A DNA stretch of 57,780 nucleotides, filler included, from Jimgerdemannia flammicorona (lineage: Eukaryota): NCBI GenBank assembly GCA_003990765.1. It is 3 parts of 3 records of this genome, joined end to end, with 100 filler letters (N's around TTAATTAATTAA, not from the genome) between each part and the next. Parts side by side here need not be neighbours in the genome. Positions count along the whole stretch, not along the records: positions 19,300 to 38,490 come from RBNJ01002003.1; 2 more parts are not named here. One strand, written 5' to 3'. Below the pieces are notes generated by a model. That model saw nothing but the letters and a program-made list of their open reading frames with translations. It was not told the DNA's origin and searched no databases. This document shows, in pieces, positions 2,431 through 45,777 of the stretch; positions within the stretch are counted from its first letter, which is position 1; each line of letters begins with the position of its first letter. Made by a program: the position numbers and the translations under genes.

Positions 2431-2466
<36 letters not shown>

Positions 2467-13242: not shown

Positions 13243-13277
<35 letters not shown>

Positions 13278-17321: not shown

Positions 17322-17394
<73 letters not shown>

Positions 17395-18437: not shown

Positions 18438-18471
<34 letters not shown>

Positions 18472-19190: not shown

Positions 19191-19199
19191 TGAAAAAAA

Positions 19200-19299
19200 N
19201 NNNNNNNNNNNNNNNNNNNNNNNNNNNNNNNNNNNNNNNNNNNTTAATTAATTAANNNNNNNNNNNNNNNNNNNNNNNNNNNNNNNNNNNNNNNNNNNN
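19200..19299. other. Assembly gap with artificial ttaattaattaa spacer
   Basis: 100-nt N run with a central linker; identical design at 38491-38590. Confidence 0.97.
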
Positions 19300-19333
<34 letters not shown>

Positions 19334-19945
19334 GAGTAAAGAAGGCTTCAATAAGACCTTCTTCATCCTGACTTGCTGGGTGTAGTGTAAGGAGTTCAGT
19401 GAATAGGGTTTTGCCTATTTGCTGATTTAACTGGAGTATTTCTTTCTTTGAATGAAGTTTGTCTCACTTATTACAGGTATGGAGGTCAAATTGTCCTTGT
19501 ACATCAGGTTCAATTCTCTCCAGATTGTCAGATGGTTCAGGATAAATTCCAGTTCAGAGGTTGGGCTTTATACCAACTTGTAGGAATTTACAGAGGGTTT
19601 TGTAGTGGGGTGAGGAAGCATCTTGAAGTGGAATTAGATTATAAACTGCTGCTACCAAGTTGTAAGAGAGTTGCTTTTTAGGGTAATTGTTACATAGTTC
19701 TGGAAGGGTTTTCTGGAAGTTCTGGATGTTCTGGAAGACTGTTTTCTTATGGTCAAGATCAATTCCATATGGAGTACATCCTCTATGCTTATTGATTTCA
19801 AGATTGGGTTGATGTCTCAACCAAAGTCCTTTTTCAGACTAGTTCTGGATGCTCAGGATTTTCTGTATTTCAGGAAGTTCAAGAAACTAAGACCAGCTTA
19901 GTTGAATTGGCGTATCACTGCAGACAATACCCAATTAGGAAATTT

Positions 19946-21764
19946 CGTGATGGGGTTAGGAGTGAGACCTAATGGGGAGTGGATTTACTTAAGAGTGGTT
20001 TGTGGGTTATTAAATAGGTTTATTCGCTATTCATGATATTATTATACTAGGAGTAGTTGTGTAAAGAGATATTATGGAGAAGTGCTCAGGAGTTGTGTTT
20101 GGAGTGTTCAAGTCTTTCAAGTCTGAGATTCTGAGGTCTGGGAGAGGGGGTATTTATACTAGTGAGAGGCTATCTGGACTATACTAGATATAGATATAGT
20201 ACTTAGTACCTTGCTGAGTTGGAATGTAGTCATGTAGTACAAGAGTGATCTGATATGTCAAGAGATCGTCTGACTGCTGAGTCAGTTCACAGTCATGTCA
20301 TACAAGGCTAATCTAACTATACTATGACTGCTAAGCTATTTATAGGTTTAGACACTATCTGAGTAATCTTTGATGATATCACCATCAATGACATCATCTC
20401 TAATAAAGTAGTTGTCTAAGAAGAGTGGTTTATGGATTACTTCTCCTTGTTTACTAAGATAATAATACATTGAAACTTCATCACCATCCTATAGGATGGC
20501 ATCATCTGTCTCATATGCTGGATAAGGTATTGGGGGTGAAAAAGTGGTACATCATCTTCACTTTCATCAGATTCGCTGTCTGTATACCTTCTGTAGATTA
20601 CAGCACTATGAGTCACTGGGTTGTAGTATGCTGGTGACTATGGTTTATGTCACTTGTACTCAGGTGATGGAGTGGTTGGTTTGATCTTGAGGGTTGTCTG
20701 GAGGTACAGGTTGTATTCTCCAGTCTCTTCATTATAGTTGAAGTAATTGAGAGTGAATGCAGATTGGTATTTATGCTACTAATCATTGTCCCAATAGGTC
20801 TCATAGGTGGTTATGAACTGTTGTAAGTTCATTGGTAAGGTTGGCAGTGTGATTAGTATTGGCAGGGATCCTTGGCTTGGGGTCAAGTCAGTGTCAGAGA
20901 GATCATTGTCTTCTGCTTTATCTTCATTGAACTGGATTATATTGTAGATATCCTTCATAGCATATCCAACTTGGAGCATTTGCAGAATGTGGTCATTGGG
21001 GTGTGGGAAGGTTCTGTCTGTAGTCTGGATATACTTGAAGTACTTGTGGTTGAGTTTTTATATTATATCATCGATTTGGCCATAAGACAGAGTAGCAACC
21101 ATTTCACTGGTAGTAACTTGGAGGTAGGGAATAAAGGTGCTATACTCATAGAAGAGTTCTTGGTGTTTGCAGGTGATGAGTTTCTGATGTTGGGACATCT
21201 GGGTAATATCTGTATCATAATGGTGTTCAACCATTTCTTCCAGGAGGCAGCTGATCTAGTAGTAGCTTGAGATTTGTCTGATCTAGTGGGCCTTGTTAAG
21301 TATGTTTAGGGCATTCCATCAGGCTTCCACAAAGTAAAGGGATGCTAGGCTATGGATATTTATAAGGGGTAGAGGGGGTGTGGCTCAGTTGACAATGATA
21401 TTCCAAATATCAGCATAGATGTAGTTGTAGATCTCAGTAGTCATGTTTGTATATGTTCAGAAGTTGTGGTTATTGTTTGTTTTGGTTCTCTGTTTGATGA
21501 ATCTTGGTACTCAGTATATATGCATTTGGTCTTGATTGGTAAGATTCTATTTGTGTAAATCTTGTGTTCTATGACTTCATATTGACTCAGCTTTGTATAC
21601 TGTGACTTCGGTTTGACTCAGCTTTGTGTACTATGACTTCAGTTTGACTCAGCTTCATGATCAAGCAGGTGATTTCCAGATTTGTTCAGAGGTCACATGT
21701 GATTTCAGTGGCTTGTTCAGAGGGTGACATGTGATTTCAGTGGCTTGGAGGTTGTGTACTTATA
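19946..21764 (-). mobile_element. Long (~1.8 kb) LTR-like unit with a decayed internal ORF (~20800-21447)
   Basis: 20898-21764 is homologous to 35171-36013, which ends in ...gcttACA. Same TATA context (gggggtatttatac, ~20146-20159) and same layout as 6895-8362. Tandem ~31-bp repeats at 21570-21750. Left boundary uncertain; a PBS-like tgggtattgtctgcagtg and a decayed ORF follow on - (19300-19935). Confidence 0.6.
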
Positions 21765-21768
21765 TAAA

Positions 21769-22448
21769 TAGTGCTCCCAATGAATCAAATTGAATCAAAT
21801 TAGACCTAAATTTAATTTAATTCAAAAACTTCAAATCGAATTGAGGCCCAATTTGATTCAAATTTCAATTTGAACCTAAATTTTTAAAATTCAATTACTT
21901 GATAAAAACATGTCCAAATTTAATGATCTTTATTGAATCAAATAAAATCAAGTCATAATTCAAATTGAAGTTCAAATTTCGAATTCAATTCAAAATTCAA
22001 TTCAAAGTTCAAATTCAATTCAAAATTCAAAACTAAATATTATAATTCAAAACTCATATATGATATAACTCATAACAATATATACACAATCAAGTATATT
22101 ATAATTAAACATGTTGGACATATCTTCTACAGTACCACTTATGGTAGATACTATGATGATAATAGCTTCAGTATCAGATACAGCTTCAACAAGCATAGCT
22201 ATAATAAGTGTAGTCTCAATACAACAGTCTAAGAAAGGAAAAGGAAAAAACAAAAGAATACTCTAGTATTTGGAAAGAGTTTACAAAAGAGTATGCAGAG
22301 AATAGAGATATCACCAGAGTCAAATATAATCACTATAAAATGATATATAAGTTTATTGGTAGCTCTACAACAAATCTACAGGTATATTTTGACAAATTTC
22401 ACAAAAGTCATCAAGCAAGAGTGATAGAATTGTTTTTCTTGAAAGTAT

Positions 22449-22505
<57 letters not shown>

Positions 22506-22708
22506 TAATTTATTGCTATTTTTCTTTTATATTAAATAGCCAAGATTTTCTATGAAATTATTTCAAGATATGCTTGTTCGCTGGATTATCCATGATAGTT
22601 AGCTTTTTACAGTTATTGAGAATTCAGAGCTGAGAGATGTTTTTTGTCTTCTAAAACCAGATATTACTATTCCTTCTACTGGAACTATATATATAAAGTG
22701 AAATTAAA
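21769..22708 (+). mobile_element. 5' fragment of a decayed hAT transposon, cut by a LINE
   Basis: Starts tagtgctcccaa with (aattcaaatt)-rich subterminal repeats like those at 52216+. 22536-22708 is homologous to 56275-56447(-) and encodes LFQDMLVRWIIHDS.LFTVIENSELRD..CLLKPDITIPS. Confidence 0.8.
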
Positions 22709-25700
22709 CTGGTGGTGCTGGAGACTCAGGTGGAGGATACCCATATGGCTGGGGCAGCAAATGTCTATTGGGAGTGTCCAGAAGCTGGTGAGGTTATTTA
22801 TTTGGAGAAAGTTGCAGAGGAGGATAAGCTGGTAGATGTGGCTTCTGATGTGTCAGCAGATAGAGAGCAACTGCAAGAACTGAGCAGGACCCCCAGGCCA
22901 TTGACTCCTGGGCCCCTGGTGATGACAGCAGAGAGCTGGTATCAGGCAGTACTGGAGGAGCTGGCAGAGGAAGACATCAAGGAAGTGGATGTATTTTATA
23001 GATCTCAGGAGGTATGGGAAGGATTCCTCAATATAGCAATGCAGAGACCTAAACTAGTGATGGCGATAGTTGCCACCCTTCTGGATGATGAAGGATATGA
23101 TGTTGATGAGAGCAGGATGGCTGACATCAGGAAGGTGGCAACAGAGAGAGTGGATCTTTTCTGCAGCAGTACTAATGGGGATCGAATCTGGAGGGCCATT
23201 TGCGAGGACCAGTAAGAGATCATTAGAGGAAGGACTGAGAAGGTGGTGGCAGTCCCAGCTGAGCTTTAAATAATTTCCTTCATAATGATGAACAATCTAT
23301 GTATTTTGTTGATCAATATCAATAGATTGCAGGGTGGTGTTAAAAGATAGCGGCTTTTCAGATGGCTTAAAGTCAGGAGGTATAATGTTGTATTTCTTCA
23401 GGATGTTCGAGCTTATGGTGAGTTGGACTATAAGATGTGGAGTAAAGAATGGTATAGTGGAGCAGGTTGGAACAAGCAGGTGGGTATCTTGGTTGGTATA
23501 GGCAAAGGTGAGCTAGTGGAGGTAGAGATCTATGGTAACAGACTGATCTGGGGAAGACTAAAAGGTGGGGCAGGTGATGGCTTGATAGTTGGCTCAGTTT
23601 ACCTCCCTGCAGTTGGCAGAGAGCGAAAGCAATGAGTTGAGAGATGGCAGGCATGGGATGGTCAGGAGGTAGTTGCTTTGGACATTCTGGGGGGAGACTT
23701 CAATATGGTGTGTGATCATATACTAGATAGGTCTGATGGTGGAGCAGGAGTTGCAGTATCTTCTGGACTTTCTCAATAGCTGCAGGTGGAGAGTGACATA
23801 GGTTTGGTGGATGGTGTTCATCAATGACAGGGGGATAAGTTGGGACCTTTCACCTAGTGGTACCCAGTTGGAACAGTATTGGTTAGGATGTATATTGATT
23901 GGGTGCTAGTAGCAGAGTGCTGGGGCAATATACTGGACACTGCTGGGGTGTGCTGGTGCCCTTAGTCTGATCACTGAGGAGTGGAGATTTGTGGTAGATT
24001 CCAAGCTGCAAGCAGTGATGGAGAGTGCTGGTGCCTCAATGTAGCCTTACTCAAGAGGAAGAAGAAGAGGGACAATTTTGTAACAGTTATGTGACAGGAA
24101 GTTTTGTGATGGCAAAATGAAGGACAGTTGATAGCAGAATGGTGGGGTAAATTCAAACATTTGGCTGGTGCTTACTGGTGTGATGTTAGGGAAGTGGCTG
24201 GAAAGAAACAGAAGAATAAGGAAAGGAGAGTAGAGAAGGGGCTGAGATGGCAATTGAAGCTTTTGGAAAAGGGGTACTTGTCCAGAGAGGTGTACCACCG
24301 GTTGGCAGTAGAGGTGGCAGAGCTGCAGGTAGATTTAAGGGTGTCTGAGATCAGGGTGGGAGATGGCCTGCTGGCCAGACTGCGAGCTAGAAGGTTGGAA
24401 GAAGGAGAGAGGCTGATGAGATATCTATCTGGTGTTTTGAAGGCCAGGAGAGTACGTCATAGTTGGGCCTCAGTATTGTATGAAGATAGGAGTGGAGGTC
24501 TCTGGAATTGCTGATATGTTAGGGGAGGTATCCGGTCAATGGCAAGCTCTTTGGTAGGATGGAGGAGAGCATGCTGAAGTTACTGGGCATGGGGAGGATA
24601 ATGACAATATGGTTATCAATTGGCCAGTGACAGCGATACCTGAGATAGGGGAGGCAGTTATGGGGGAGGTGTTGCTAGAGGAAGTATTGGAAGTATTGAG
24701 GAAGATACAGACTGGTTCATCTCCTGGGGAGGATGGGTTGCCCTGGGAATTCTGGAAGGAGTTCAAAACTGAGTTTGGTGACTGGTTGGTGGAGATGGCC
24801 AATGCTGTTCTGAAGGAGGGTAGCTGGATTGGCAATGGTTCTCTGGGGCTGGTTTCTCTTCTATATAAGAAGAAGGGAGATCAATAAGTGTGGCATAATT
24901 GGTGACCTATCATGCTGCTGAATGTGGATAGAAAGTTGGTGTCAAAGATTCTAGTAGGGAGGATGCAGCAGTATGTTGGTGCACTAGTTGGTGAAGAGCA
25001 GCAAGGCTTTGTCAAGAGAAGACAGATTAGAGATAGCACTGCTTGAGTGCAGAATGTCTTGGAGAGCTGTAGGAGCCAGAAGATGAATGGCCAGATAGTC
25101 TTTCTGGATCAAGAGAAGGCCTATGATAGAGTGTGGTAGAGCTACCTGGAGGCTGTTCTGAGGAGGGCAGGGTTCAGTACAGTAGAGGCAGGGCAACTAA
25201 TAGGCTTGGTACAGAGATGCTGAGCAGCAGTTATGATGAATGAATAGTGTAGACCAGAGTTTGCCTTGGGGCAAGGGGTACCACAGAGGGATCCTCTCTC
25301 CCCCCTTCTTTATGTACTTTCTCTAGAGCCTTTGCTGGTGTGGCTGAAGGAGCAGCTCTCTGGACTGCAGATGGGAGATGTGGTCTGGTGGCTGGGTACC
25401 TTTGTGGATGACATGGTGGTAGAGTTGGGTAGTCAGGAGGATATAGTAGTCCTACAAGAAGGGGTTGGACAGTACAAGAGGCTAGCAGGGGCAAAGTTAA
25501 ATTGGGGCAAGTGTGAGACAATGGAACTTAGTGCTAGCCTGGGGGGACAGAGACAATTCAGCCAATTGGTAGCCACAGGGAGTGCTGTTCGGTATTTGGG
25601 CATCTGGTTCTCTGTGTATGGGACAGTCCTGCCAAGGGAGTAGTAGTGTGGACTGATTCAGAAGCTGGAAGGTGCATTGACAGATTGGTCAGGGAGGAGC

Positions 25701-26777
25701 TTCTCCTTAGTTAGCAGGATAGTAGTCTTGAATATATATTGGTTGTCCAAACTGTGGTATCTGGGTTATCATCTGGATTTTCTAGAGTGGGTGGTACAGC
25801 AGCTGAAGAAGATTGTAGAAGGGTGGATATGGTGTGGAAGGCATCTACAGATTGAATGAGAGACTTTGGTGATGAGGACTTCTGATGGAGACCTGGGGCT
25901 GGTGAATTTCAGGCACTGGCTGAAGGTACTATAGAGTTGGTGGGGGTGCCGAATGATAGAACTTGGTGAGGAAGGTTGGGGCAGGCTGGCCATGGACAAT
26001 TGAGAGGTCCAGTTCTGCCCTTGTAGTGAGGTCTGGAAGAATATATAGGGCTTACTTCAGGTTGAAAGTATAGGTAGGCTGTGGTTTAAGGGGTTCTGGT
26101 GGGGCATTGTGGAAGCCTGGCTGGCCATGAGGTTAGCAGGCCCAGAGATAGAGGTGGGTGAGAACCCTGAGCAGAGATGGTGGTGATTGGGAGACCTGCA
26201 CATTGGTGGCCATAGTTTGAAGGAGTACTCTTTGATTGAGGCAATGGAGTGGATCAGGTCTGGCCCTCTGGAGAGATGGCCACCTGGTTGGCAGAGAGCT
26301 GGTATTGGTGAGGACTGGGAGTGGGTTCATATTTAGAATTGAGAAGTCTTGGTATGCAAGATGGTGCCCTCCAAATACTGGGTAGTTTGGTGGCGATTCT
26401 TGAGGCATAATGTGATGCTGAGCTATTGGACAGACTGGATGGAGGTAGATGGCTATCAGGATGGTAAGTAGTGTAATGAGGTGGATGGAGGGGTTGTTCA
26501 GATACCAGAACATGTTCTGGGGGTCTGCCCAGGAGTGGAAGGGTTTTGGTGGTGTTTGGAAGGTTACTGGGGCTCAGAGAGGCGAAGAGCAGAGGATCCA
26601 GCCAGTCTGATGGTCAAGCACTGGCTGGTAGGGGAAATTGGTGATACATGGGGGGGTCTAGGTCGAGTTTTGAGGGTCTGGGTCTTGATGGCAGTGCATT
26701 GGCAGTGGATTTTTGAACAGGACCCATAGATGGGAATTGGAGAGATGGTGGAGAGGTGGAGGTGGCTTATTCAGGAA
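22709..26777 (+). mobile_element. L1/Tx1-clade LINE, 5'-truncated and decayed (ORF1 C-terminus; ORF2 APE-RT-zf from ~23286)
   Basis: APE motifs VFLQD, ILGGDFN, IDW, SDH; RT motifs SSPGEDGLPWEF, NW.PIMLLNVD.K, FLDQEKAYDRV, GVPQRDPLSPLLY, FVDD; C-terminal CxxC...H...CP remnant. Many stops. Confidence 0.92.
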
Positions 26778-27278
26778 AGGAGGAAGAAGGCCCAGCGGGA
26801 GCCAAGGGAGCGAACCCAGAGCCAGTGTCAAAGCAAACGGAAGACATGTGGAAGAGTATGTATAAGGGGGATGAACAAAGAATGTAACTGAAAATGTATC
26901 AGCCATTTATTGCCACGTAAAAATGTGGTCCTTATATACAAAATATGACATCCCAAAAGGGAGGACACACCACAACTCAGGGCGAACTGAATTAGGAACC
27001 ACATGACTGCCAGAGATAGGCGGAGATAAAGGGGGAGCCAATTCCAGTTGCAGGATAAAAATCACAAACAAACACAAACAAAACAAATCCAAATCGAGAT
27101 TAAAAAACATCCGCAGACCCCGGAGGGGTGAGCACAAGTGAGGGGTGAGGCCAAAACAGAGCAAGCCACAGTGAGCCCAAGCGAAGTAAGGGGCCGAAGG
27201 CAGCAGAGGGGAGTGGAGTAAGGCCGAGACCCCGGAGTGAGCACGAGACCCCAGAGGGGGCAAGGATGTTTTTTAATC
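26778..27278 (-). repeat. 3' pseudo-LTR of the left arm (direct repeat of 30436-30936; inverted copy at 34414-34916)
   Basis: Near-identical ~500-bp blocks. Each includes the first ~70 nt of ORF1 and the 15-bp inverted repeat gattaaaaaacatcc/ggatgttttttaatc (27098-27112/27264-27278). Confidence 0.9.
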
Positions 27279-29357
27279 CTCTCCGACAGAACCGGAGGCA
27301 CCAGAAGGTGATGAAAATGCAAAACGAGAGCAATGGATTGAAGAAGAAACAGAAGGAAGATGCGAACGAGTAATCAGAGGGTATCGGGAAAGAGATAAAA
27401 GTCCATGGCGTGAAAGAGAAGAGCGCAGGACGGTATCAGGGCGTTGAGCGACCCAGTGAGCATGATCAAATGGTACAACGAGAATCGGGGGTGGGAAAGA
27501 AGAGGGGGTACAGAGAGGGTAAGGGGGGAGAGAGGGAAGGGAGGGGGGGTAAAGGGGAGAGAGTAGGGAAGAGCGAACAACAGACCATTCAACAGAAGCA
27601 AGCAGATCACAAACGATAGAAATAGGGTAGGCATGACGATGGACCACGAAGTTACCAAGAACCTGAACAGCAAACACCCAATCAGAATGACGGGAGCAGC
27701 ATAATGCAAGACAACGAGCCTCACCACAAACACATTCAAGAAGAGTGTGACAAGGATGGTTGGACAAGAAGTCAGGGAACTGTTGGGAACAGGGAAAATG
27801 GGAATAAACAACAGTTCGGAAGGGAGAAAGAGAAATGGAAAGGTCCAAAAAAGGAATACTAGTCATACTGCATACCCAAGTAATAGAATGATGGGGAGGG
27901 TAGACACCCAGGAACACACTAGGAATATTAATGCCAGCAACAGCAAAGACAATAAAGTCATCAATGTATCGGCGAAAGAAGATATCCCCAGCCCAGAATG
28001 CAATGGAAAGAGGTGAAGTAATATCACGTAATGTATGCAATTCATGGGCCAGGCCAATGAGGTTGGCAAGGGTGGGGGCACAATTCGTACCCATAGCAAT
28101 ACCAGAAGTCTGGTGAAAGGAGCCAAGAGCCGACTCAAAATAATTCGAGCCGCAGACAAGGAGCATAAGCTCAACAATAGAAGCCAGCGAAACCAGGGAA
28201 TCCAAAGGAAAAACCAAGAAACCCAAGAAGTGAAGGCAATCATCGATCTCATCAAAACGAATAGCAGTATAGAAGAAAGAGAAGTCACCAGAGGCCAGAT
28301 GGGAAAAACGGTGAACAGGTACAATGGTGGAGCAGAGAAGAGTGAGCTCCTGAGTATCACGAAGAATAGTATACTCAGGCCCAAGACGGTGTTGTAAGAG
28401 AGCCATCCAGGAGAGAAAGAAGTGGGATAACCACTTCGAAATCTTGGTGGTAGGAGAACTGTAAGCAGCCGTAATAGGACGCCAAGCCAAAACAGGCTTG
28501 TGAACTTTAGGAAGAACATAGAAAACTGGAAGAGAAATATCCGGGGAGGACAAAGAGTCCTGGAAGAAGTTAAAAATGGGGTTCGCGAATGGGAAATCCA
28601 AAAGCGATCTAGCATGAGCCAGAGAAACCCGAAGAAGAGTGAGAATCTCATCCAATCCAAGAGCACTAGGCTCATAAGCCATGGCTCGAAGGAGGGCAGA
28701 AAGGCCATCAAGGTAAAGCAACTTAGGAATAAGTGCAAAACTCTGATTCTTATCAGTGACTGTGAGCAAATGCATAGGCAATTGCTTGACCGATTTAAGT
28801 GCAGTATGCACAGCACAGTCCGAAACCAAGCAAGAACGAGCTCGTCCAGGAATGGACAGTGAGCAAGCCATGTCGAGGAATACGCAGTATGAAGAGATAT
28901 TGGGAGGGGGGACCCAATCGCTAGGAACAAAATAGCGAGAGGGCATCTCACCATGATCTTGAAAGAAGATGGCAAGGTCAAGAGCACAATGAAAACATGT
29001 TAGACGAGTCAGATCAGTGAAAGAGAATTGTGAGGGAGTCGCAGGAAAAACAAAACAAGGACCCAAGGATAAAGCAAAGACTTGAAGGGGAGAAAGGGGG
29101 CAGTCAGCCAAAGAAAAAGGAGGAGACAAAAGAGCTCCAAGAGAAGAGTAAACCCGAAAGTTCGGGACAAGCAACTGGGAAAGACGAAGGGGGGACAACA
29201 TGAGGAACCACTCAGGGTGCACCAGAAGTGACGATGGAATCCGAGAAGGGACAGGGACACTGGGGAAGAACCACGCTGGGGGGAAGTTTAAGAGCAGGAG
29301 GCCTTTCCCTTCCCTCTGACTTTTTTTGAAGGTGGTGAGCCCGACAAATGGGAGCAC
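27273..29357 (-). CDS. Penelope-like reverse transcriptase (ORF2), no GIY-YIG endonuclease
   Basis: TDKN, FYVLPKVHK...WRPI, SGDFSFFYTAI, QTSGIAMGTNCAPTLANL, FRRYIDD, IPFLDL. Protein ends shortly after the thumb; open for 694 codons. Confidence 0.9.
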   Translation of the reverse strand: MLPFVGLTTFKKSQREGKGLLLLNFPPAWFFPSVPVPSRIPSSLLVHPEWFLMLSPLRLSQLLVPNFRVYSSLGALLSPPFSLADCPLSPLQVFALSLGPCFVFPATPSQFSFTDLTRLTCFHCALDLAIFFQDHGEMPSRYFVPSDWVPPPNISSYCVFLDMACSLSIPGRARSCLVSDCAVHTALKSVKQLPMHLLTVTDKNQSFALIPKLLYLDGLSALLRAMAYEPSALGLDEILTLLRVSLAHARSLLDFPFANPIFNFFQDSLSSPDISLPVFYVLPKVHKPVLAWRPITAAYSSPTTKISKWLSHFFLSWMALLQHRLGPEYTILRDTQELTLLCSTIVPVHRFSHLASGDFSFFYTAIRFDEIDDCLHFLGFLVFPLDSLVSLASIVELMLLVCGSNYFESALGSFHQTSGIAMGTNCAPTLANLIGLAHELHTLRDITSPLSIAFWAGDIFFRRYIDDFIVFAVAGINIPSVFLGVYPPHHSITWVCSMTSIPFLDLSISLSPFRTVVYSHFPCSQQFPDFLSNHPCHTLLECVCGEARCLALCCSRHSDWVFAVQVLGNFVVHRHAYPISIVCDLLASVEWSVVRSSLLSPLYPPSLPSLPPYPLCTPSSFPPPILVVPFDHAHWVAQRPDTVLRSSLSRHGLLSLSRYPLITRSHLPSVSSSIHCSRFAFSSPSGASGSVGED

Positions 29358-30505
29358 ACCCCGTCAGAGTGCCAGACCTTGTGGCCACAGGCCTTCGTGC
29401 AGCCCTTACATTTAGGGGCATGGGTGGAGGAGGCGGAGGAGGAACCGGCAGAGGAGGCTGAAGGCGAGCGAGCAGCCGAAGGAGCAGCAGCGTGAGGAAC
29501 ACCACCATGAGGACAGATAGACTTGGCCAGGTGCCAGTAGGTACGGTGGAGGCGACCGGAGCAGACAGCGCAAGGCCAGGCCCCGACAGGGCGAGAACCA
29601 AGTTGGCGGCCACACTTGGGGGCAGGGGGAATAGAGGAGGAAGCCTTGGTGGGGGAGGGGGACCGGGAAGAGGCCGATGAAGCCTGGTTGGGCTTGGCGG
29701 GGGTCTTGGTGGGGGTCTTGGAGGGGGCCTTGGCGGCAGCAGCGGTGAAGGAATGAACCTCAGCATGAGCAGTGGCATGAGCTTCAGCACGGATGGCCTT
29801 GGAGACTGAAACCTCGGGGGAGGTAGGCAGAGGAGCAGTGGCGGCGGTGCGAGCAGCGGCGGCAGCATGTGATGACTCCTGCTCATGAAGGCGAGCAACA
29901 AAAGAAGTACCGGCGAGGAGGAAACGACGTACAGCATCAATGTTGGCAGCGACAGAAGGAACGTCTTGGATGGTGAAGCCGCAGAAGGGGGCAGCATCCG
30001 AAAGGCGAGAGGAGGTGAAGGCCACGAAAGCGGCACAGGCATGTTGGAAGGAGGCGGAAGTGGTGGTGGCAGAAGCAGCGGTGGCATCAGCAGCAGCGAG
30101 CTTGGCAGTGGCAGTGGCAGTGTGAACCTCTTCGGAGAGGGCTTGGTGGCGGGCCTCGGGGAGAACAGAGTAGCGGATGGCGGGCGGAGCGACAATGTTG
30201 ACGTCATGGCGGAGACGAGCCTCCTTGGCGGAGAGGGCAAGAACCGACCGGAACTGAGAGAGGAGCAGATGACCAGAAGGAAGAAGGTCCAGGGGGAGGG
30301 AAAGGATGGTAGAAGAGACATAGGTCTCGAAGGAGACAGTGGCAGGGGTGAAGGCAGGGGGAGGGGGAGGAGGAAGTACCTCATCTATGAGCTCATTGAC
30401 AAAGACAGAGGCCCCGAGGGCAGGCAGTACAGCAGAGGAGGAAGAAGGCCCAGCGGGAGCCAAGGGAGCAAACCCAGAGCCAGTGTCAAAGCGAACGGAA
30501 GACAT
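29288..30505 (-). CDS. PLE ORF1, Ala/Ser/Pro-rich with two C-terminal Cys/His clusters
   Basis: 405 aa from ATG; CAVC..RLHRTYWH...ICPH and CKGC..ACGHKVWH...VCSH; open in both arms. Confidence 0.8.
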   Translation of the reverse strand: MSSVRFDTGSGFAPLAPAGPSSSSAVLPALGASVFVNELIDEVLPPPPPPAFTPATVSFETYVSSTILSLPLDLLPSGHLLLSQFRSVLALSAKEARLRHDVNIVAPPAIRYSVLPEARHQALSEEVHTATATAKLAAADATAASATTTSASFQHACAAFVAFTSSRLSDAAPFCGFTIQDVPSVAANIDAVRRFLLAGTSFVARLHEQESSHAAAAARTAATAPLPTSPEVSVSKAIRAEAHATAHAEVHSFTAAAAKAPSKTPTKTPAKPNQASSASSRSPSPTKASSSIPPAPKCGRQLGSRPVGAWPCAVCSGRLHRTYWHLAKSICPHGGVPHAAAPSAARSPSASSAGSSSASSTHAPKCKGCTKACGHKVWHSDGVCSHLSGSPPSKKVRGKGKASCS

Positions 30506-31186
30506 GTGGAAAAGCGTGTATAAGGGGGATGAACAAAGAACATAACCGAAATTGCATCAGCCATTTATTGCCATGTAAAAACGTGGTCCTTATATACAAA
30601 ATATGACATCCCAAAAGGGAGGATGCACCACAACTTGGGGCGAACCGAATTAGGAACCACATGACCGCCGGAGATAGGTGGAGATAAAGGGGGAGCCAAT
30701 CCCAGTTGCAGGATAAAAATCACAAACAAACACAAACAAAACAAATCCAAATCGAGATTAAAAAACATCTGCAGACCCTGGAGGGGTGAGCGCGAGCGAG
30801 GGGTGAGGCCGAAACGGAGCAAGCTGCAGTGAGCCCAAGTGAAGCGAGGGGCCGAAGGCAGCAGAGGGGAGCAGAGTAAGGCCAAGACCCCGGAGTGAGC
30901 GCGAGACCCCGGAGGGGGCCAGGATATTTTTTAATCTCGATTTGGATTTGTTTTGTTTGTGTTTGTTTGTGATTTTTATCCTGCAACTGGGATTGGCTCC
31001 CCCTTTATCTCCGCCTATCTCCGGTGGTCATGTGGTTCCTAATTCGGTTCGCCCCGAGTTGTGGTGCATCCTCCCTTTTGGGATGTCGTATTTTGTATAT
31101 AAGGACCGCGTTTTTATGTGGCAATAAATGGCTGATGTAATTTCGGTTACATTCTTTGTTCATCCCCCTTATACATGCTTTTCCAC

Positions 31187-32404
31187 ATGTCTTCCATTCG
31201 CTTTGACACTGGCTCTAGGTTTGCTCCCTTGGCTCCCGCTGGGCCTTCTTCCTCCTCTGCTGTACCGTCTGCCCTCGGGGCCTCCGTCCTCGTCAACGAG
31301 CTCATGGATGAGATACTTCCTCCTCCCCCTCCCCCTGCCTTCACCTCTACCACTGTCTCCTTCGAGACCTATGTCTCTTCTGCCATCCTTTCTCTCCCCC
31401 TGGACCTTCATCCTTCTGGTCATCCGCTTCTCTCTCAGTTCCGGTCGGTTCTTGCCCTCTCCGCCAAGGAGGCTCGTCTCTGCCATGACATCGACATCAT
31501 CGCTCCGCCCACCATCTGCTACTCTGTTCTCCCCGAGACCCGCCGCCAAGCCCTCTCTGAAGAGATTCGCACCACCACTGCCACCGCCAAGCTTGCTGCC
31601 GCTGATGCCACTGCTGCTTTCGCTGCCACCGCTTCTGCCTCCTTCCAACATGCCTGTGCCGCTTTCATGGCCTTCGCCTCCTCTCACCTTTCAGATGCTG
31701 CCCCCTTCTGCAGCTTTACCATCCAAGACGTTCCTTCTGTCGCTGCCGACATTGACGCTGTATGTCATTTCCTCCTCGCCGGCACCTCTTTTGTTGCTCG
31801 CCTTCACGAGCAGGAGTCATCATGTGCTGCCGCCACTGCTCGCGCCACCACCACTGCTCCTCTGCCTACCTCCCCCAAGGTTTCGGTCTCCGAGGCCATC
31901 CGCGCCGAAGCTCATGCTGCTGCTCGTGCTGAGGTTCGTTCCTTTGCCACTGCCACCACCAAGGCCCCCTCCAAGACCCCCGCCAAGACCCCCGCCAAGC
32001 CCAACCAGACTTCATCGGCCTCTTCCCGGTCCCCCTCCCCTGCCAAGGCTTCCTCCTCCATTCTCCCTGCCCCCAAGCATGGCCGCCAACTTGGTTCTTG
32101 CCCTGTTGGGGCCTGGCCTTGCACTGTCTGCTCCGGTCACCTCCACCATGCCTACTGGCACCCGGCCAAGTCCGTCTGTCCTCATGGTGGTGTTTCTCGT
32201 GCTGCTGCCCCTTTGGCTGCTCGCTCGCCTTCGGCCTCCTCCGCCGGTTCCTCCTCTACCTCCTCCACCTGTGCCCCTGAATGTAAGGGCTGCACAAAGG
32301 CCTGTGGCCACAAGGTCTGGCACTCTGACGGGGTGTGCTCCCATTTGTCGGGCTCGCCACCTTCAAAAAAAGTCAGAGGGAAGGGGAAGGCCTCCCGCTC
32401 TTAA
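31187..32404 (+). CDS. PLE ORF1, right-arm copy
   Basis: Collinear homolog of 29288-30505; open frame. Confidence 0.78.
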   Translation: MSSIRFDTGSRFAPLAPAGPSSSSAVPSALGASVLVNELMDEILPPPPPPAFTSTTVSFETYVSSAILSLPLDLHPSGHPLLSQFRSVLALSAKEARLCHDIDIIAPPTICYSVLPETRRQALSEEIRTTTATAKLAAADATAAFAATASASFQHACAAFMAFASSHLSDAAPFCSFTIQDVPSVAADIDAVCHFLLAGTSFVARLHEQESSCAAATARATTTAPLPTSPKVSVSEAIRAEAHAAARAEVRSFATATTKAPSKTPAKTPAKPNQTSSASSRSPSPAKASSSILPAPKHGRQLGSCPVGAWPCTVCSGHLHHAYWHPAKSVCPHGGVSRAAAPLAARSPSASSAGSSSTSSTCAPECKGCTKACGHKVWHSDGVCSHLSGSPPSKKVRGKGKASRS

Positions 32405-34419
32405 ACTTCCCCCCAGCATAGTTCTCCCCCGGTATCCCCATCCCTTCTCAGATTCTGTCATCGCTTCTGGTGCACCCTGAGTGATTCCTCATGTTGTCCC
32501 CCCTTTGTCTTTCCCAGTTGCTTGTCCCGAACTTTCGGGTTTACTCTTCTCTTGTAGCTCTTTTGTCTCCTCCTTTTTCTTCAGCTGACTGCCCCCTTTC
32601 TCCCCTTCAAGTCTTTGCCTTATCCTTGGGTCCTTGTTTTGTTTTTCCTGTGACTCCCTCACAATTCTCTTTCACTGATCCGGCTCATCTAACACGTTTT
32701 CATCATGCTCTTGACCTTGCCATCTTCTTTCAAGATCGTGGTGAGATGCCCTCTCGCTATTTTGTTCCTAGCGATTGGGTCCCCCCTCCCAATGTCTCTT
32801 CATACTGCGTATTCCTCGACATGGCTTGCTCACTGTCTGTTCCTGGATGAGCTCATTCTTGCTTGGTTTTGGACCATGCCATGCGTACTGCACTTAAATC
32901 GGTCAAGCAATTGCCTATGCATTTGCTCACAGTCACTGATAAGAATCAGGGTTTTGCACTTATTCCTAAGTTGCTTTACCTTGATGGCCTTTCTGCCCTC
33001 CTTCGAGCCACGGCTTACAAGCCTAGTGCTCTTGGATTGGATGAGATTCTCACTTTTCTTTGGGTTTCTCTGGCTCATGCTAGATTGCTTTCAGATTCCC
33101 CATTCACGAACCCCATTTTTAACTTCTTCCAGGACTCTTTGTTCTCCCTGGATATTTCTCTTCCGGTTTTCTATGCTCTTCCTAAAGTTCACAAGCCTGT
33201 TTTGGCTTGGCGTCCTATTACGGCTGCTTACAGTTCTCCTACCACCGAGATTTCGAAGTGGTTATCCCGCTTCTTTCTCTCCTGGATGGCTCTCTTACAA
33301 CACCGTCTTGGGCCTGAGTATACTATTCTTCATGATACTCAGGAGCTTGCTCTTCTCTGCTCCACCATTGTGCCTGTTCACTGTTTTTCCCATCTGGCCT
33401 CTGGTGACTTCTCTTCCTTCTATACTGCTATTCATTTTGATGAGATCGATGATTGCCTTCGCTTCTTGGGTTCCTTGGTTTTTCCTTTGGATTCCCCAGT
33501 TTTGCTGGCTTCTATTGTTGAGCTTACACTCCTTGTCTGCAGCTCGAATTATTTTGAGTCGGCCCTTGGCTCCTTTCACCAGACTTCTGGTATTGCCATG
33601 GGTACGAATTGTACCTCCACCCTTGCCAACCTCGTTGGCCTGGTCCATAAATTGTGTGCGTTATGTGATATTACTTCACCTCTTTCCATTGCATTCCAGG
33701 CTGGGGATATCTTCTTTTGCCGATATATTGATGACTTTATTGTCTTTGCTGTTGCTGGCATTGATATCCCTAGTATGTTCCTGGGCATCTACCCTCCCCA
33801 TCATTCTATTACTTGGGTATACAGTATGACTAGTATTCCTTTTTTGGACCTTTCCATTTCTCTTTCTCCCTTCCGAACTGTTGTTTATTCCCATTTTCCC
33901 CATTCCCAACAGTTTCCTGACTTCTTGTCCAACTATCCTCATCGCACTCTTCTTGAATGTGTTTGTGGTGAGGCTCATCGTCTTGCATTATGCTGCTCCC
34001 ATCATTCTGATTGGGTGTTTGCTGTTCGGGTTCTTGGTAACTTCATGGTCCATTGTTGTGCCTACCCTATTTCTATCGTTCGCGATCAGCTTGCTTCTGT
34101 TGAATGGTCTGTTGTTCGCTCTTCCCTACTCTCTCCCCTTTACCCCCCCTCCCTTTCCTCTCTCTCCCCTTACCCTCTCTGTACCCCCTCTTCTTTCCCA
34201 CCCCCGATTCTCATTGTACTATTTGATCATGCTCGCTGGGTCGCTCAATGCCTTGATACCATCCTGCGCTCTTCTCTTTCACGCCATGGACTTTCATCTC
34301 TTTCCCGATGCCCTCTGATTGCTCGTTCGCGTCTTCCTTCCATTTCTTCTTCAATCCATTGCTCTTGTTTTGCGTTTTTGTCACCTTCTGGTGCCTCCGG
34401 TTCTGCCGGAGAGGATTAA
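32335..34419 (+). pseudogene. PLE reverse transcriptase, right-arm copy with two premature TGA stops (32482, 32848)
   Basis: Same motifs (ALPKVHK, GIAMGTNC, RYIDD). TGG->TGA and CGA->TGA relative to the left arm. Confidence 0.88.
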
Positions 34420-34916
34420 AAAACATCCTGGCCCCCTCTGGGGTCTCGCGCTTGCTCCGGGGTCTTGGCCTTACTCTGCTCCCCTTCGCTGCCTTCAGCC
34501 CCTCGCTTTGCTTGGGCTCGCTGCGGCTCACTCCGTTTCGGCCTCACCCCTTGCTCATGCTCACCCCTCCGGGGTCTGCGGATGTTTTTTAATCTCGATT
34601 TGGATTTGTTTTGTTTGTGTTTATTTGTGATTTTTATTCTGCAACTGGGATTGGCTCCCCCTTTATCTCCATCTATCTCTGGTGGTCATGTGGTTCCTAA
34701 TTCGGTTCGCCCCGAGTTGTGGCGCATCCTCCCTTTTGGGACATTGTATTTTGTATATAAGGACTGTGTTTTTACATGGCAATAAATGGCTGATGCAATT
34801 TCGGTTACGTTCTTTGTTTGTCCCCCTTATACACACTTTTCCACATGTCTTCCGTTCGCTTTGACACTGGCTCTGGGTTTGCTCCCTTGGCTCCCACTGG
34901 ACCTTCTTCCTCCTCT

Positions 34917-35137
34917 TTCAGTCATTGGCATATGGTTGGGTTTTCCCTAATAGTAGGGAGAGCATAGTGTACAGAATGAGGTATGGGCCACATAGGCCCT
35001 GCTATATCTAGTATAGTTGAGCTGCTAGACAATAGCTAGCCTAGGTTAATAGGGGGGCAGTACTTAGTGGGTGGTGGGGGAGGGTTTTGGCCTATATAGT
35101 CTAGGTTCCCTTTTAATAAAAATCCATGAGACATTAA

Positions 35138-35168
<31 letters not shown>

Positions 35169-35170
35169 AA
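34917..35170 (+). mobile_element. LINE 3' end with poly(A) tail
   Basis: Matches the reverse complement of 1-232; aataaa at ~35114; ~A25 tail at ~35146-35170. Confidence 0.85.
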
Positions 35171-36013
35171 GAGGGATTATTATCTTCTGCTTTGTCTTCA
35201 TCAAATCAGATTATATCATAGACATCCTTCATAGTATAACCAACTTGAGGCATTTGCAGGATATAGTCATCAGGGTGTAGGAAGGTTCTGTCTGTGGTCT
35301 GAATATACTTGAGATACTTGTGATTGAGTTCTTATATCATATCATCTATTTGGTCATAGGATAGAGTAGCAATCATTTCAGTAGTAGTAACTCAGAGGCA
35401 GGAAATAATAGTGCTATATTTATAGAAGAGTTCTTGATGTTTGCAGGCAATGAGTTTCTGGTATTGAGACATCTGGATAATGTCTGTATTGTGATAGTAT
35501 TTGATCATATCTTCTAGAAGATGGCTGATCTGGTAGTAGCTTGAGATTTGTCCGATTCAGTGGGCTTCACTAAGTATGTTCAGGGTATTCCATTGAGCTT
35601 CTACAAAGTAGAGAGGTATTAAGCTATGGATATTCATGAGGGGCAGAGAGAGTGTGGCTCAGTTGCAATGACATTCTAAATATCAGTATAGATGTAGTTG
35701 TAGATCTCAGTAGTCATGTTTGTATATATTCAGGAGTTGTAGTTGTGTATTTAGTTTGTTTTGGTTCTCTGTTTTGATGCATTTTGGTACTTAGTATATA
35801 TGTATTTAGTCCTAATTGGTAAGATTCTATTTATGTAAATCTTATATTCTATAACTTCATATTGACTCAGCTTTGTGTGCTGTGACTTCAGTTTGACTTA
35901 GCTTCATGATCTTGCAGGTTATTTCCAGATTTGTTCAGAGGTCACATGTGATTTCAGTGGCTTGTTCTGAGGGTGATATATGATTTCAGTGGCTTGGAGA
36001 TTGTGTGCTTACA
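35171..36013 (-). mobile_element. Partial second copy of the long ORF-bearing LTR-like unit
   Basis: Collinear with 20898-21764; begins TGTAAGCA on the - strand; truncated at the LINE poly(A). Confidence 0.75.
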
Positions 36014-37750
36014 AAAGAGCAGATCAAGGTAGACTGTTTTGTTTCTGTAAATCTTGACTGAGACTTCTATATTATTAAGATAGTGTGGAATCATTGAAAG
36101 AGAGACTTGGAATACTATTTTGATGACCAGCTCTCTGTCATCATAGAGATTTCTTAGCTTGATCTACTTCTCCAACTTCAGCTCAAGGTAAGAGTACAAT
36201 AAGTCAATATTATTATTAGTGATAAGTTAATTGATGTTATTTCTGAAAGCATCTGAACCTGTCTGAATATTGCAAAGTTGAAGGATATGCTTGATGATTG
36301 TTTTGGTGATAACAGTATTTAGTAAGCAAAAGAGATCTAGTTGGTTGGTAAAGGTCAGTACTTTAAAGTAAAGAAGGAATAATTTCAGAAAATCAACTCC
36401 TTGGCTATCAACATTGATAAGATCAGACAGTTGAATGTTTTGTTAAATTGCTTTAAATGGAATCTGCTTGGTCATCAATAATTCAGTAAAGAGTAAGGTG
36501 GAGTTGGGGTACCTCCCTATAAACATCAAGACACTCTTGCTCAACTCATTATTGGGGTTAATAAGCTAGAGTGAGCACTTCACCAAAAGATACTGCAAAT
36601 AGTCCAGACATAAGTTAGTGATATAAATGCCATTATCCTTTATTGTCTGAAATTTGTATCTATTATAGTATTTGCATATTTGCTCAAGATGAGTATTAAC
36701 AGAAATCTTCTTCTCTTCATTGGTTAATTTCTCTCTTTCTGTAAAGATAGACTTAAGTATACATTGAATATTCTCCTTCTTGGGCCTATATATATTTATA
36801 TGTTGGTTCAAGAGTAATGTCATATTGAATATTGAATCTGCTGGTAACATTATTTATCACAAGTAGTGACATCTCTTTAGAGATATACATGATATTAATG
36901 GTGTTTCAATTATTATACAAGTATCTTATTGAATCAATGAGCTTATCAGTCATGAAAACATGATTAACTTCCTTACTGCAATAACCCTTGATGATCCCAA
37001 AGATGGCTTTGAGAATGCTCTGCTTGTTATAGAGTTATATATATATAAGATTATATCAGTTAAGTCAAGATACTCATTGACAATTGCATCATACTTATCA
37101 ATTAAGAGGTAGATCTAAAAGTGTTGATGAACTATTAGTCAATATAATAAAGAAACTCTGTATATCATCAACAGGTTATCTTGTATGGGTAATCTCAAAA
37201 ATCTTAAAAGAGATTTTCAAGAGAAGAAAGACAGTTCTCTGGATTAATAATTTATTATCAAAGATCTTCTATATTCTTTTCTAGTAAATATGCATATTTG
37301 TTACAGAAGTCTCTAATTAATATATTGATATAGTCTCTGAGGGGTTGGTTTATTTCTTCAATACTAAAAGACCTCTATATTTATTTTATTAGTAGTTGGA
37401 CATGATGAGATAATTATTGATAAGTATATATAATAAAGATACCTTGAAATCTTAGTGAAATCCTAATTGAGGATTAAGAACTGATTGTATCACAGTTTAG
37501 AGGCATACTGATAGATCTCAAGTAGACCAAACAGTTAATTGAAATTCTGTATCTCATTAACATCATAGAAATATTAGATGGTGAACAATAGCAGTGATTT
37601 ACTAAAGCATTTTGGTCACAAGAATATTAGGACTTGTTAATCATTCTTGATTTCTTTGATATACTTAGTCTTGTCAATATAGAAGAAATTATTATTACAT
37701 AGCACCTTGAAATCAGAAACACTATTTATAGGAAAGACAATCTTTAGTCA
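36014..37750 (-). pseudogene. Decayed AAA-ATPase-like (PF09820/DUF1703-associated) gene
   Basis: Manual translation: FPINSVSDFK...FFYIDKTKYI...FL*PKCFSKSLLL...YFYD (family YVDKT...RPRRFGKS), VTSRFNI...ITLEP, YYNRYKF (WYNGYxF), LLYFKVLTF. Many stops. Confidence 0.75.
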
Positions 37751-38241
37751 TTTTGATGGTTTGAGAGTAAACTCTAGCTCTCTTTTGATAGGGATGTGTG
37801 AAGAGAAGGCTAGAAATAAAAGAGTAAGAGTACAGGATTGATGATGATAGATAGATAGAAGAGCACATGGAATAATGAGAATATTATAAAGGTAACTATC
37901 ATAAATATATAAAGGAAGCCCAAGAACCAATAAAAGATAAATAAAAAAGATTGAGCAAGTATTATATCACAAAAAGAGTAATCATTACAATATGATATAG
38001 ATGGATAAATACATATATACAGATAGATAGACAAATGCAGGCAATATGCCAAATAAATATAGAGAAGATGTTTATTAATAGATAATTAAATAGATTGAGT
38101 GAGATAGATAAATATAGATATACATAGATAAGCAATAGATAAATAGAGACAATATGATACAATATGATGTATTCTTTCTTCCTGTTATCTCTGATCCTAT
38201 TAAACTATGACTTACCAGCTAGATAAATATACAATATACAG

Positions 38242-38490
38242 TGTAACGTAGCAGACGCTTACTCTTGAAAGTACGTCGGATTTCTGTATCTTGAAAACTT
38301 GACTGTTCTGACTCTCGCAGAGTCTTCTTGAAGTTGCAGGGGAGGGTGGGTGAGTTCGAAGTATATCTGCCCGCAGGCTTACTAGTTCCTTTGCTATCTC
38401 TTTGCTTTGAACTATTTCGATCTGAGGTTTATTCACTCGAAGATACTGGGTTATTTATACAAGTTTGCTAGCTATGAGAGGGTGGCTAAG
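38242..38490 (-). mobile_element. Gypsy LTR fragment (family of 45274-45675), cut by the gap
   Basis: tgtaacgtagcagacgcttactcttgaaagtacgtcgg... is the reverse complement of the LTR 3' half. Confidence 0.9.
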
Positions 38491-38590
38491 NNNNNNNNNN
38501 NNNNNNNNNNNNNNNNNNNNNNNNNNNNNNNNNNTTAATTAATTAANNNNNNNNNNNNNNNNNNNNNNNNNNNNNNNNNNNNNNNNNNNN
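38491..38590. other. Assembly gap with artificial spacer
   Basis: N run with ttaattaattaa. Confidence 0.97.
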
Positions 38591-38720
38591 TTAATGGACT
38601 CTATGTCCCATGGAATTTTATTGGAAGGGAACCTAGACTGTATAGGCCAAAACCCTCCCCCACCACCCACCAAGCACTGCCCCCCTATTAACCTAGGCTA
38701 GCTATTGTCCAGCAGCTTGA

Positions 38721-38723
<3 letters not shown>
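38591..38723 (-). mobile_element. Short 3'-terminal LINE fragment
   Basis: Matches window 2-133; abuts a poly(T) run. Confidence 0.85.
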
Positions 38724-38761
<38 letters not shown>

Positions 38762-45675: not shown

Positions 45676-45777
45676 ACTTAGTGCCCATTGGCTGGTGATT
45701 CATGATGAATCCCTCACTTTCAAGCTGAACAACGAACAACTGCCACTATCCAAACCGAGCCCCAAAACCCAGACAAG

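Follow-up and report, generated by a model that had tools for sequence, protein, structure and literature searches.

Introduction

Penelope-like elements (PLEs) have unusual direct and inverted terminal repeats, and the properties of the GIY-YIG endonuclease have been considered very likely to determine these tandem or inverted pseudo-long terminal repeats (pseudo-LTRs) (PMC8557442). In a 57,780-nt stretch (the window) of the draft Jimgerdemannia flammicorona assembly GCA_003990765.1, a PLE without endonuclease lies as two head-to-head copies, raising the question of how such an inverted dimer could have been made. The window joins three contigs (1-19199, 19300-38490 and 38591-end) through identical 100-nt linkers, N44-TTAATTAATTAA-N44, at 19200-19299 and 38491-38590, and adjacency across these linkers is not biological. 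The dimer lies within the second contig (RBNJ01002003.1, 19.2 kb), and all conclusions on it rest on this single locus in draft sequence. An earlier note on this DNA had described the locus as a palindrome that looks like an opened, self-primed cDNA hairpin. Here, we show that the dimer stems from one event and one source, and we propose tentatively, at somewhat less than an even chance, that it was produced by cDNA copy-back at a hairpin of the element itself.

Architecture of the Dimer

The two inverted arms, found by a repeat search and by BLAST, span 26778-30769 and 30923-34914; they are 3992 nt long each and stand 153 nt apart, in agreement with the arms of about 3.99 kb around a 153-nt spacer that had been noticed earlier. 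Their complementarity reaches 92.4% (92.385% over 3992 columns in BLAST) with no gap. One correction to the first description is that the arms are similar rather than identical, with 304 differing positions, of which 299 are transitions, and no insertion or deletion. Direct repeats with a spacing of 3658 nt are present in both arms (D1, 30922-31221/34580-34879, and D2, 26772-27071/30430-30729), and each arm thus slightly exceeds one unit of an element of 3658 nt, which is made of pseudo-LTRs of 503 nt, a first open reading frame (ORF1) and ORF2, which encodes a reverse transcriptase (RT).

Besides the arms themselves (I1), two inverted pairs, I2 (30434-30936 versus 34414-34916) and I3 (26772-27112 versus 30922-31262), assign the central spacer to the left copy and place the start of the right copy at the second repeat arm (30922). 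The left copy, whose sense strand is the minus strand, runs from 30936 to 26772 as a complete unit of 5' pseudo-LTR, body and 3' pseudo-LTR, central hairpin spacer included (26772..30936; pairs I1-I3 and D2, BLAST and sequence). The right copy, with its sense on the plus strand (30922..34916; I1, I2, D1, BLAST and sequence), is the inverted second copy, devoid of the first 168 nt of the pseudo-LTR and terminating at the same element end as the left one. Since I2 overlaps with I3 and D1, the two head-to-head copies share 15 nt at their junction (30922..30936, without strand), where the 5' pseudo-LTR of the left copy ends with the 15 nt that open the right copy. The spacer, which had been viewed as lying between the arms, is hence a part of the left copy. 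On the outer sides, the dimer ends at 26778 (possibly 26772) and at 34914-34916. Both ends correspond to element position 31256, with an agreement within 2-6 nt; this position is 81 nt beyond the first ATG of ORF1 (31175) and 69 nt beyond the second one, matching the common end point about 70 nt into ORF1 that had been reported.

Each pseudo-LTR opens with a hairpin in which an AT-rich 15-nt inverted repeat closes a GC-rich loop of 151-153 nt. The repeat, GATTAAAAAACATCC with its complement GGATGTTTTTTAATC, is located at 27098-27112/27264-27278 and 34414-34428/34580-34594, and its central copies (30755-30769/30922-30936) are slightly mutated, with pairing kept at 13 of the 15 positions. Present at all three pseudo-LTR hairpin positions, this repeat is native to the pseudo-LTR, as the earlier note had stated. 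In the left copy, the native 3' hairpin (27098..27278, minus strand; sequence and scripted comparison) has its repeat arms at 27264-27278 and 27098-27112. In the right copy (34414..34594, plus strand; sequence and RNA fold), arm a (34414-34428) is followed by a 151-nt spacer and by arm b (34580-34594). The RT stop codon TAA (34417-34419) lies inside the first of these arms. Folded as RNA, this 3' hairpin of the right copy forms a stem closed by the 15-nt repeat, with a minimum free energy of -79.4 kcal/mol (z = -3.27), none of 200 shuffles being equally stable. At the centre of the dimer, the repeat partner arm (30755-30769) and the GC-rich spacer (30770-30921) are in left-copy orientation (30755..30921, minus strand; I2 and three-copy comparison) and, past 30936, the sequence reads tcgatttgg, the complement of the bases preceding 30755, just as first described.

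Three pseudo-LTRs can be delimited around these hairpins: the 3' pseudo-LTR of the right copy, 503 nt with the hairpin followed by a 322-nt region (34414..34916, plus strand; I2, D1 and sequence), the 503-nt 5' pseudo-LTR of the left copy (30434..30936, minus strand; I2 and D2), and the 3' pseudo-LTR of the left copy (26772..27278, minus strand; D2 and I3), which is 91.6% identical to 30430-30940 with 39 transitions and 3 transversions. The 322-nt part holds a TATA-like motif (31096-31102), an AATAAA hexamer (31123-31128) and the first 27 codons of ORF1; the two motifs, judged by their sequence, may act as functional signals.

A Penelope-Like Reverse Transcriptase Without Endonuclease

ORF2 is an open frame of 696 codons in the left copy (27273..29363, minus strand; ORF call, Pfam and alignment), coding for a PLE-type RT without endonuclease domain, and is interrupted in the right copy (32329..34419, plus strand; ORF call) by three in-frame stops at frame codons 31, 52 and 174. 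It carries the motifs DKN, PKVHK..RPI, GDF..YT, GIAMGTNCAP, RYIDDF and FLD. In an alignment with 16 relatives, these motifs (VTDKNQSF, LPKVHKP..WRPI, SGDFSFFYT, GIAMGTNCAP, RYIDDF and FLD) are in register and correspond to the PLE patterns DKN, PKxHK..RPI, GDxxSLYT, GIAMGT, RYIDD and FLD, the catalytic aspartates are retained and D204 and K205 are almost invariant. Library searches with ORF2 returned 2594 proteins at E<=0.001, 399 at E<=1e-10 and 6 at E<=1e-30, the top match being a 406-aa 'hypothetical protein' from JGI (48% identity over 401 residues) and the best match with an organism name being from the glomeromycete Racocetra fulgida (35% identity). In the Atlas, clusters of rotifer RTs come closest (score 0.97), and Pfam reports only a weak RVT_1 match (E=0.0022). 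A profile search of solved structures, in which bacterial and group II RTs come first (E=3e-6) and TERT appears only at E=0.3, is uninformative on kinship with TERT.

No endonuclease domain was found in ORF1 or ORF2 by Pfam at E<=0.1. In the alignment, the closest relatives with complete C-termini likewise end without endonuclease, and ORF2 stops at about the same point as the endonuclease-less relatives P0001 and P0006. A GIY-YIG domain (PF01541) C-terminal to the RT was detected in 2 of the 39 relatives scanned, a thin basis for comparison. The arrangement of the locus agrees with what is described for PLEs, whose insertions are often partial tandems and for which inverted 5' copies next to the upstream pseudo-LTR are a stated hallmark (PMC8557442). 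Indeed, pseudo-LTRs are formed here by a partial tandem, reaching 81 nt into ORF1, and an inverted 5' copy adjoins the upstream pseudo-LTR with a 15-nt overlap (PMC8557442, PMC3846280). From its sequence, the element represents a new endonuclease-less PLE family, and the earlier assignment to a PLE with pseudo-LTRs and without endonuclease is borne out by the RT motifs, the repeats, the Pfam searches and the alignment.

ORF1 is open in both copies, with 405 aa from its ATG in the left one (29288..30505, minus strand; 422 codons from stop to stop, 29288-30556; ORF call, Pfam and homologue search) and 409 aa in the right one (31175..32404, plus strand; ORF call). The protein is rich in Ala, Ser and Pro and, by reading, has a CX2CX4HX4H-like motif. 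Pfam gave no family at E<=0.1, the homologue search no protein at E<=0.001, and the best Atlas score (0.78) is under the useful range.

Regarding hammerhead ribozymes, an Rfam scan of the entire window at the gathering score detected none, and a scan of 26000-35800 at E<=10 gave only unrelated families at chance level. The hammerhead core CTGANGA..GAAA is absent from the element and from its C/G-allele consensus, and its 5 matches in the window compare with 6.4 expected. Minimal PLE hammerheads may evade these screens, as none of 20 relatives scored in Rfam. Naiad PLEs are also without hammerhead ribozyme (PMC8557442). As for telomeric repeats, the window has no match to (TTAGGG)2 with at most one mismatch, and no telomere-like tandem occurs in the contig or in the window. 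The reported absence of telomeric repeats is therefore confirmed within the window, and the term 'interstitial' used for the element holds for the 19.2-kb contig only.

More distant relatives were sought in metagenomes, from which 77 of 260 confirmed loci were kept, at an identity of just 22-32%. In 31 of these 77 loci (L003-L071), which are endonuclease-less, PLE-like and 3-4.8 kb long, exact terminal overlaps of 89-127 nt were observed; such loci were assembled as unit-length circles or tandems, L034 consisting of 3.5 tandem units of 3196 nt. The overlaps could reflect tandem arrays or circular templates. Perfect short-loop inverted repeats of at least 12 nt are present in 19 of the 77 loci, several of them downstream of the RT match, which is a lead only.

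Decay of the Two Arms and Single-Event Origin

The differences between the arms are informative on the reality of the structure. The 299 transitions are spread over the two arms, with 152 in the right one and 147 in the left one, and do not cluster by arm or strand. Oriented as C>T, 139 fall at CpG and 119 at CpA, i.e., 258 of the 299, and the fraction of sites changed is 27% for CpG and 26% for CpA versus 4.6% for CpC and 1.6% for CpT. When the singletons of the pseudo-LTRs are polarised by majority rule among the four copies, 27 of 34 are C>T or G>A. Transitions also make up nearly all differences within other repeats of the window (45274-45683/51445-51853, 20896-21762/35170-36011 and 1-231/34917-35147). 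Among the repeat pairs compared, three had transition:transversion ratios of 24:1, 109:10 and 31:1, and a fourth, 38242-38479 versus 45435-45675, has a ratio of only 9:4. ADAR-like A>G editing was considered and rejected, the polarised sites running C>T with a CpG/CpA neighbour preference.

This spectrum resembles repeat-induced point mutation (RIP) by its almost pure C>T/G>A transitions in repeated DNA, its strong dinucleotide preference and the equal effect on both copies. It differs from RIP in that CpG and CpA are affected alike and in the lack of strand-coherent runs, no such tract being seen in the arms. The named proteins closest to those of the genome belong to early-diverging fungi, namely Jimgerdemannia (49%), Racocetra (35%) and Scutellospora (33%), and hence to Mucoromycota and Glomeromycota, in which, to our knowledge, classical RIP is not established. 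Instead of RIP, methylated cytosines that deaminate slowly are an alternative source of the transitions.

Whatever its source, a RIP-like spectrum without indels argues against an assembly artefact. As candidates, one may think of a chimeric read created by fold-back, of a chimera from amplification, or of two dispersed copies wrongly joined at the hairpin. Assemblies do have difficulties with tandem and inverted PLE structures (PMC8557442), and the present record is a draft of contigs of roughly 19 kb. However, arms derived from one chimeric molecule would be the same in sequence or would carry random errors, indels among them, rather than 304 differences without a single indel in a CpG/CpA transition spectrum that other repeats share, and a misjoin requires shared sequence in the same orientation, of which just 15 nt are on offer. 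We hence regard the dimer as real and keep for an artefact of any of these kinds only a very slight probability.

The four pseudo-LTR copies tell how the dimer started. Over the 335 nt common to them, 34 variable sites are singletons and 9 are two-two splits, the latter distributed 4/3/2 over the three possible groupings, in a star pattern. Identity between the pseudo-LTRs of one copy (92.9% and 91.6%) matches that between the arms (92.4%). The star pattern and the equal identities mean that the four pseudo-LTRs began identical, at the same time, and that the dimer derives from one event and one source.

Of the two copies, the left one has been spared stop codons. Relative to the C/G-allele ancestor, its ORF2 has 65 changes (48 nonsynonymous, 17 synonymous and no stop), and that of the right copy 66 (53 nonsynonymous, 10 synonymous and 3 stops). 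Sites at CpG or CpA at which a change could create a stop number 30 of 450 in ORF2 and 10 of 353 in ORF1. Both ORFs of the left copy are open despite 119 C>T-type changes, for an expectation of about 4.3 stops in ORF2 and 1.5 in ORF1 (about 5.8), and the probability of having none is approximately 0.011 for ORF2 alone and 0.002 for both ORFs. This deficit is unexplained and is not taken as a sign of function, the share of nonsynonymous changes appearing to be as expected without selection.

Flanks of the Dimer

The two flanks are unrelated to each other. On the right, a 231-nt SINE-like (short interspersed element-like) repeat followed by A25 lies outside the element (34917..35170, plus strand; BLAST and alignment with the copies 1-231(-) and 38593-38724(-)). 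On the left, also outside the element, is a decayed RT fragment of the long interspersed element (LINE) type (25248..25643, plus strand; RVT_1 at E=6.4e-8, with GVPQRDPLSPLL and FVDD motifs in the translation), which stands in a G-rich flank and is not meaningfully similar to the RT of the PLE. Within the window, the left flank occurs only once: it matches neither the SINE-like family nor any other repeat of the window, even with a transition-tolerant purine/pyrimidine alphabet. Neither a clear target duplication nor a 30-40-bp tail is visible at the ends of the dimer. A 5-bp duplication, TTCAG (26770-26774 and 34918-34922), was not accepted as target duplication, as it overlaps the possible arm ends and the start of the SINE-like repeat and is within chance.

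These flanks bear directly on the possibility that the palindrome arose at the DNA level after a normal insertion, through fold-back repair, template switching resembling origin-dependent inverted-repeat amplification (ODIRA) or recombination of two nearby copies. Large palindromes are known to arise from short inverted repeats by fold-back or template switching (PMC10766183, PMC4689423), and the junction sits precisely at such a repeat. Nevertheless, fold-back of DNA would duplicate a flank, whereas here the two arms share their end point in the element to within 2-6 nt and are bordered by unrelated flanks; two old, separate insertions are likewise unlikely, since the four pseudo-LTRs diverged simultaneously from one sequence. 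With no flank duplicated, the dimer must have been made before or during integration, and a rearrangement of an inserted copy is to our mind improbable.

The exact 5' end of the SINE-like repeat, which is also the 5' end of the copy at 1-231, adjoins the right end of the dimer. No tRNA-derived head was detected in this repeat, ARAGORN having found no tRNA. The abutment could be due to chance or to a later insertion, or it could mean that the template was switched from one retroposition intermediate to another. Events of greater complexity, for instance a switch from the retroposition intermediate of a SINE at 34915/34916, take the share of probability that the other explanations leave.

Possible Copy-Back at the Hairpin or Priming From Two Ends

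Copy-back of cDNA at the hairpin of the endonuclease-less PLE, in one event, is in our opinion the best explanation of the head-to-head dimer, if still a tentative one. A free genomic 3'-OH at the left flank, from a break or a nick in a transposon-rich, non-telomeric site, would prime on the 3' end of the element RNA, at a point of the downstream pseudo-LTR that lies about 80 nt into ORF1. The antisense cDNA (the future left arm) would pass the 3' pseudo-LTR, ORF2 and ORF1 and enter a second pseudo-LTR, for a total of 1.14 units, this second pseudo-LTR being reached by a template jump within the terminally redundant sequence or through the use of a template that is circular or stems from read-through. 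Once the upstream pseudo-LTR hairpin had been copied, the nascent 3' end could pair through a 15-bp stem with the repeat arm made 153 nt earlier, and the RT would extend it along its own cDNA back to the priming point. The loop that this stem closes is, as RNA, partly paired in itself (z = -3.27). Host repair would then attach this end to the far side of the break and synthesise the complementary strand. The product would be an antisense copy, the spacer and a sense copy starting at the repeat, with both ends at the priming point, and RIP-like C>T mutation at CpG and CpA would subsequently affect both arms equally. Followed strand by strand on the sequence, a fold-back at the 15-nt repeat would yield exactly the asymmetric structure observed, in which the spacer is present once and in left-copy orientation. 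Moreover, its single priming event would account for the equal reach of the two arms.

The fold-back of cDNA on the repeat, which the earlier note had put forward, thus reproduces the structure exactly, but priming from two ends does so equally well. In that case, a double-strand break, or a staggered cut by an activity acting in trans, would offer two 3'-OH ends, each priming a cDNA at the 3' end of an element RNA. The two antisense cDNAs would converge, the repeat arm at the 3' terminus of one would anneal to the complementary arm within the other, a flap comprising the spacer and the repeat would be trimmed, and the gaps would be filled. Such a course places the outer ends within 2-6 nt of the RNA 3' end and the junction in the 15-nt repeat, leaves a single spacer, and naturally explains two different flanks. 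It also fits the usual PLE pattern of a full copy with an inverted, 5'-truncated copy of variable length (PMC8557442, PMC3846280), and is closer to it than copy-back, the inverted piece normally ending at the pseudo-LTR 3' end. On the other hand, it requires that two cDNAs of about 4 kb, made independently, each extend as far as the upstream hairpin, while PLE copies are usually strongly 5'-truncated (PMC8557442), and some source of two ends for an element without endonuclease. The star-like pattern of the pseudo-LTRs is compatible with priming from two ends without favouring it. On balance, we judge this route rather unlikely, although it is a serious contender.

Several points weigh against copy-back. 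Priming from two ends predicts the same final sequence, and this locus does not separate the two models; support comes from one locus. An inverted copy of the left flank might be expected beyond the second arm and none is seen, so that copy-back synthesis must halt on reaching the double-stranded junction. Earlier in the same synthesis, the RT would have copied the hairpin of the 3' pseudo-LTR without any fold-back being triggered. The exact abutment of the SINE-like 5' end is unpredicted and hints at a more complex event, for example a template switch. Finally, a long inverted repeat was found in none of the 77 distant metagenome relatives, a weak test given short-read contigs of about one unit.

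A stronger form of the copy-back proposal would have it programmed at the stop-codon hairpin, a hairpin-ended or palindromic cDNA being a regular product of the family; this we consider doubtful.

Significance and Perspectives

An endonuclease-less dimer that switches at its own hairpin is a natural counter-example to a determining role of the endonuclease, and points to the RT and an RNA or cDNA hairpin as the cause of inverted repeats. It suggests that the RT, rather than the endonuclease, makes the inverted structures typical of PLEs. Moreover, it offers a concrete and testable substrate, namely a 15-nt stem with a loop of roughly 150 nt placed on the stop codon. Should programmed copy-back prove true, inverted pseudo-LTRs across PLEs would be a property of the RT and an RNA hairpin and not of the GIY-YIG endonuclease, and endonuclease-less PLEs could colonise internal breaks as palindromic dimers. 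The locus also provides an endonuclease-less PLE located away from any visible telomeric repeat, in a host whose repeats bear a RIP-like CpG/CpA signature and whose nearest named proteins are from early-diverging fungi. These perspectives are bounded by the fact that the evidence is one decayed locus and that the general phenomenon and the self-priming idea have already been published.

Other Features of the Window

Other mobile elements and genes are present in the window. A Ty3/gypsy-type retrotransposon (46678-49251, plus strand), the pol of which has a dUTPase domain between protease and RT, is flanked by LTR-like repeats at 45274-45683 and 51445-51853. The first contig encodes a UbiA-type prenyltransferase (11367-12254, minus strand), for which cyanobacterial proteins are the next best matches after fungal ones, and a cytochrome P450 exon (14244-14882, plus strand); the two possibly form a secondary-metabolism neighbourhood. 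Tandem or dispersed repeat arrays of 160-390 nt occur at 4034-5666 and 17268-19056, and long poly(T) or poly(A) runs at 17268-17441, 22408-22571 and 38724-38760.

Comparison With Known Systems

Folding of a nascent strand followed by copying of the polymerase's own product is familiar from snap-back second-strand synthesis by RTs and from the copy-back defective genomes of RNA viruses. The dimer shares with them a palindrome with a small loop. The difference is that those are laboratory cDNA artefacts or defective RNA genomes, whereas the product here would be double-stranded DNA integrated in a chromosome. In L1 twin priming, both target 3' ends prime and the cDNAs are joined by microhomology, and endonuclease-independent L1 integrates at pre-existing ends; twin priming, however, inverts the sequence of one RNA without duplication, while the arms of the present dimer are complete duplicates. 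Hairpin-ended linear retroplasmids are extrachromosomal linear DNAs with a terminal hairpin that are replicated via an RNA intermediate. The analogy drawn with them, together with the idea of a built-in replication route, was overstated in the earlier note, resting as it does on one locus.

Among PLEs, the element is akin to Athena and Coprina by its RT without endonuclease and its fungal-looking host. A Coprina element with two ORFs has flanking repeats interrupted by 104 bp and always lies between telomeric repeats (PMC13159263). Coprina-1_Alen resembles the present element by direct repeats of a few hundred bp, a split by a spacer of roughly 100 nt and two ORFs (PMC13159263). Athena and Coprina elements differ by their location at chromosome ends between telomeric repeats, with reverse-complement telomeric stretches and hammerheads (PMC8557442, PMC13159263); here, neither a telomeric repeat in the window nor a hammerhead was found, in a contig of 19.2 kb. 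Another difference concerns the repeats, since protist and fungal endonuclease-deficient PLEs are said in PMC3846280 not to share the direct and inverted repeat organisation that is present here.

There is also a likeness to endonuclease-bearing Penelope elements (Pen2a_Av and Pen3a of Adineta vaga, Naiad and Chlamys). These have partial-tandem pseudo-LTRs that include the first ORF codons (12 aa in Pen2a_Av versus 27 aa here; PMC3846280), a TATA-like motif in the pseudo-LTR and an inverted head-to-head copy at the 5' side (PMC3846280, PMC8557442). They also share a junction palindrome or inverted repeat for which self-priming has been proposed (PMC3846280). In rotifer Penelope, an overlap of about 15 bp and palindromes are present at the inverted junction, with a published self-priming interpretation, and palindromes of 18 bp and 38 bp occur at the pseudo-LTR 5' ends (PMC3846280). 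The novelty implied by the earlier note is accordingly lessened, both by these observations and by the inverted 5' copies already published (PMC8557442, PMC3846280). The differences are that the present element has two ORFs, no GIY-YIG domain and no hammerhead found, and that its ends show neither a clear target duplication nor a tail of 30-40 bp. Furthermore, what is inverted here is almost an entire copy of 4 kb instead of a pseudo-LTR of about 200 bp, and a loop of 153 nt parts the two halves of the junction repeat, in place of a contiguous palindrome.

In the literature searched, we came across no endonuclease-less PLE reported in the form of a full-length inverted dimer; such a report may exist. 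The inverted architecture and the idea of self-priming are thus already known for endonuclease-bearing PLEs, and what this locus adds is their occurrence without endonuclease and without visible telomeric repeats, with an inverted part that is a whole copy and a switch point in a stem-loop placed on the RT stop codon.

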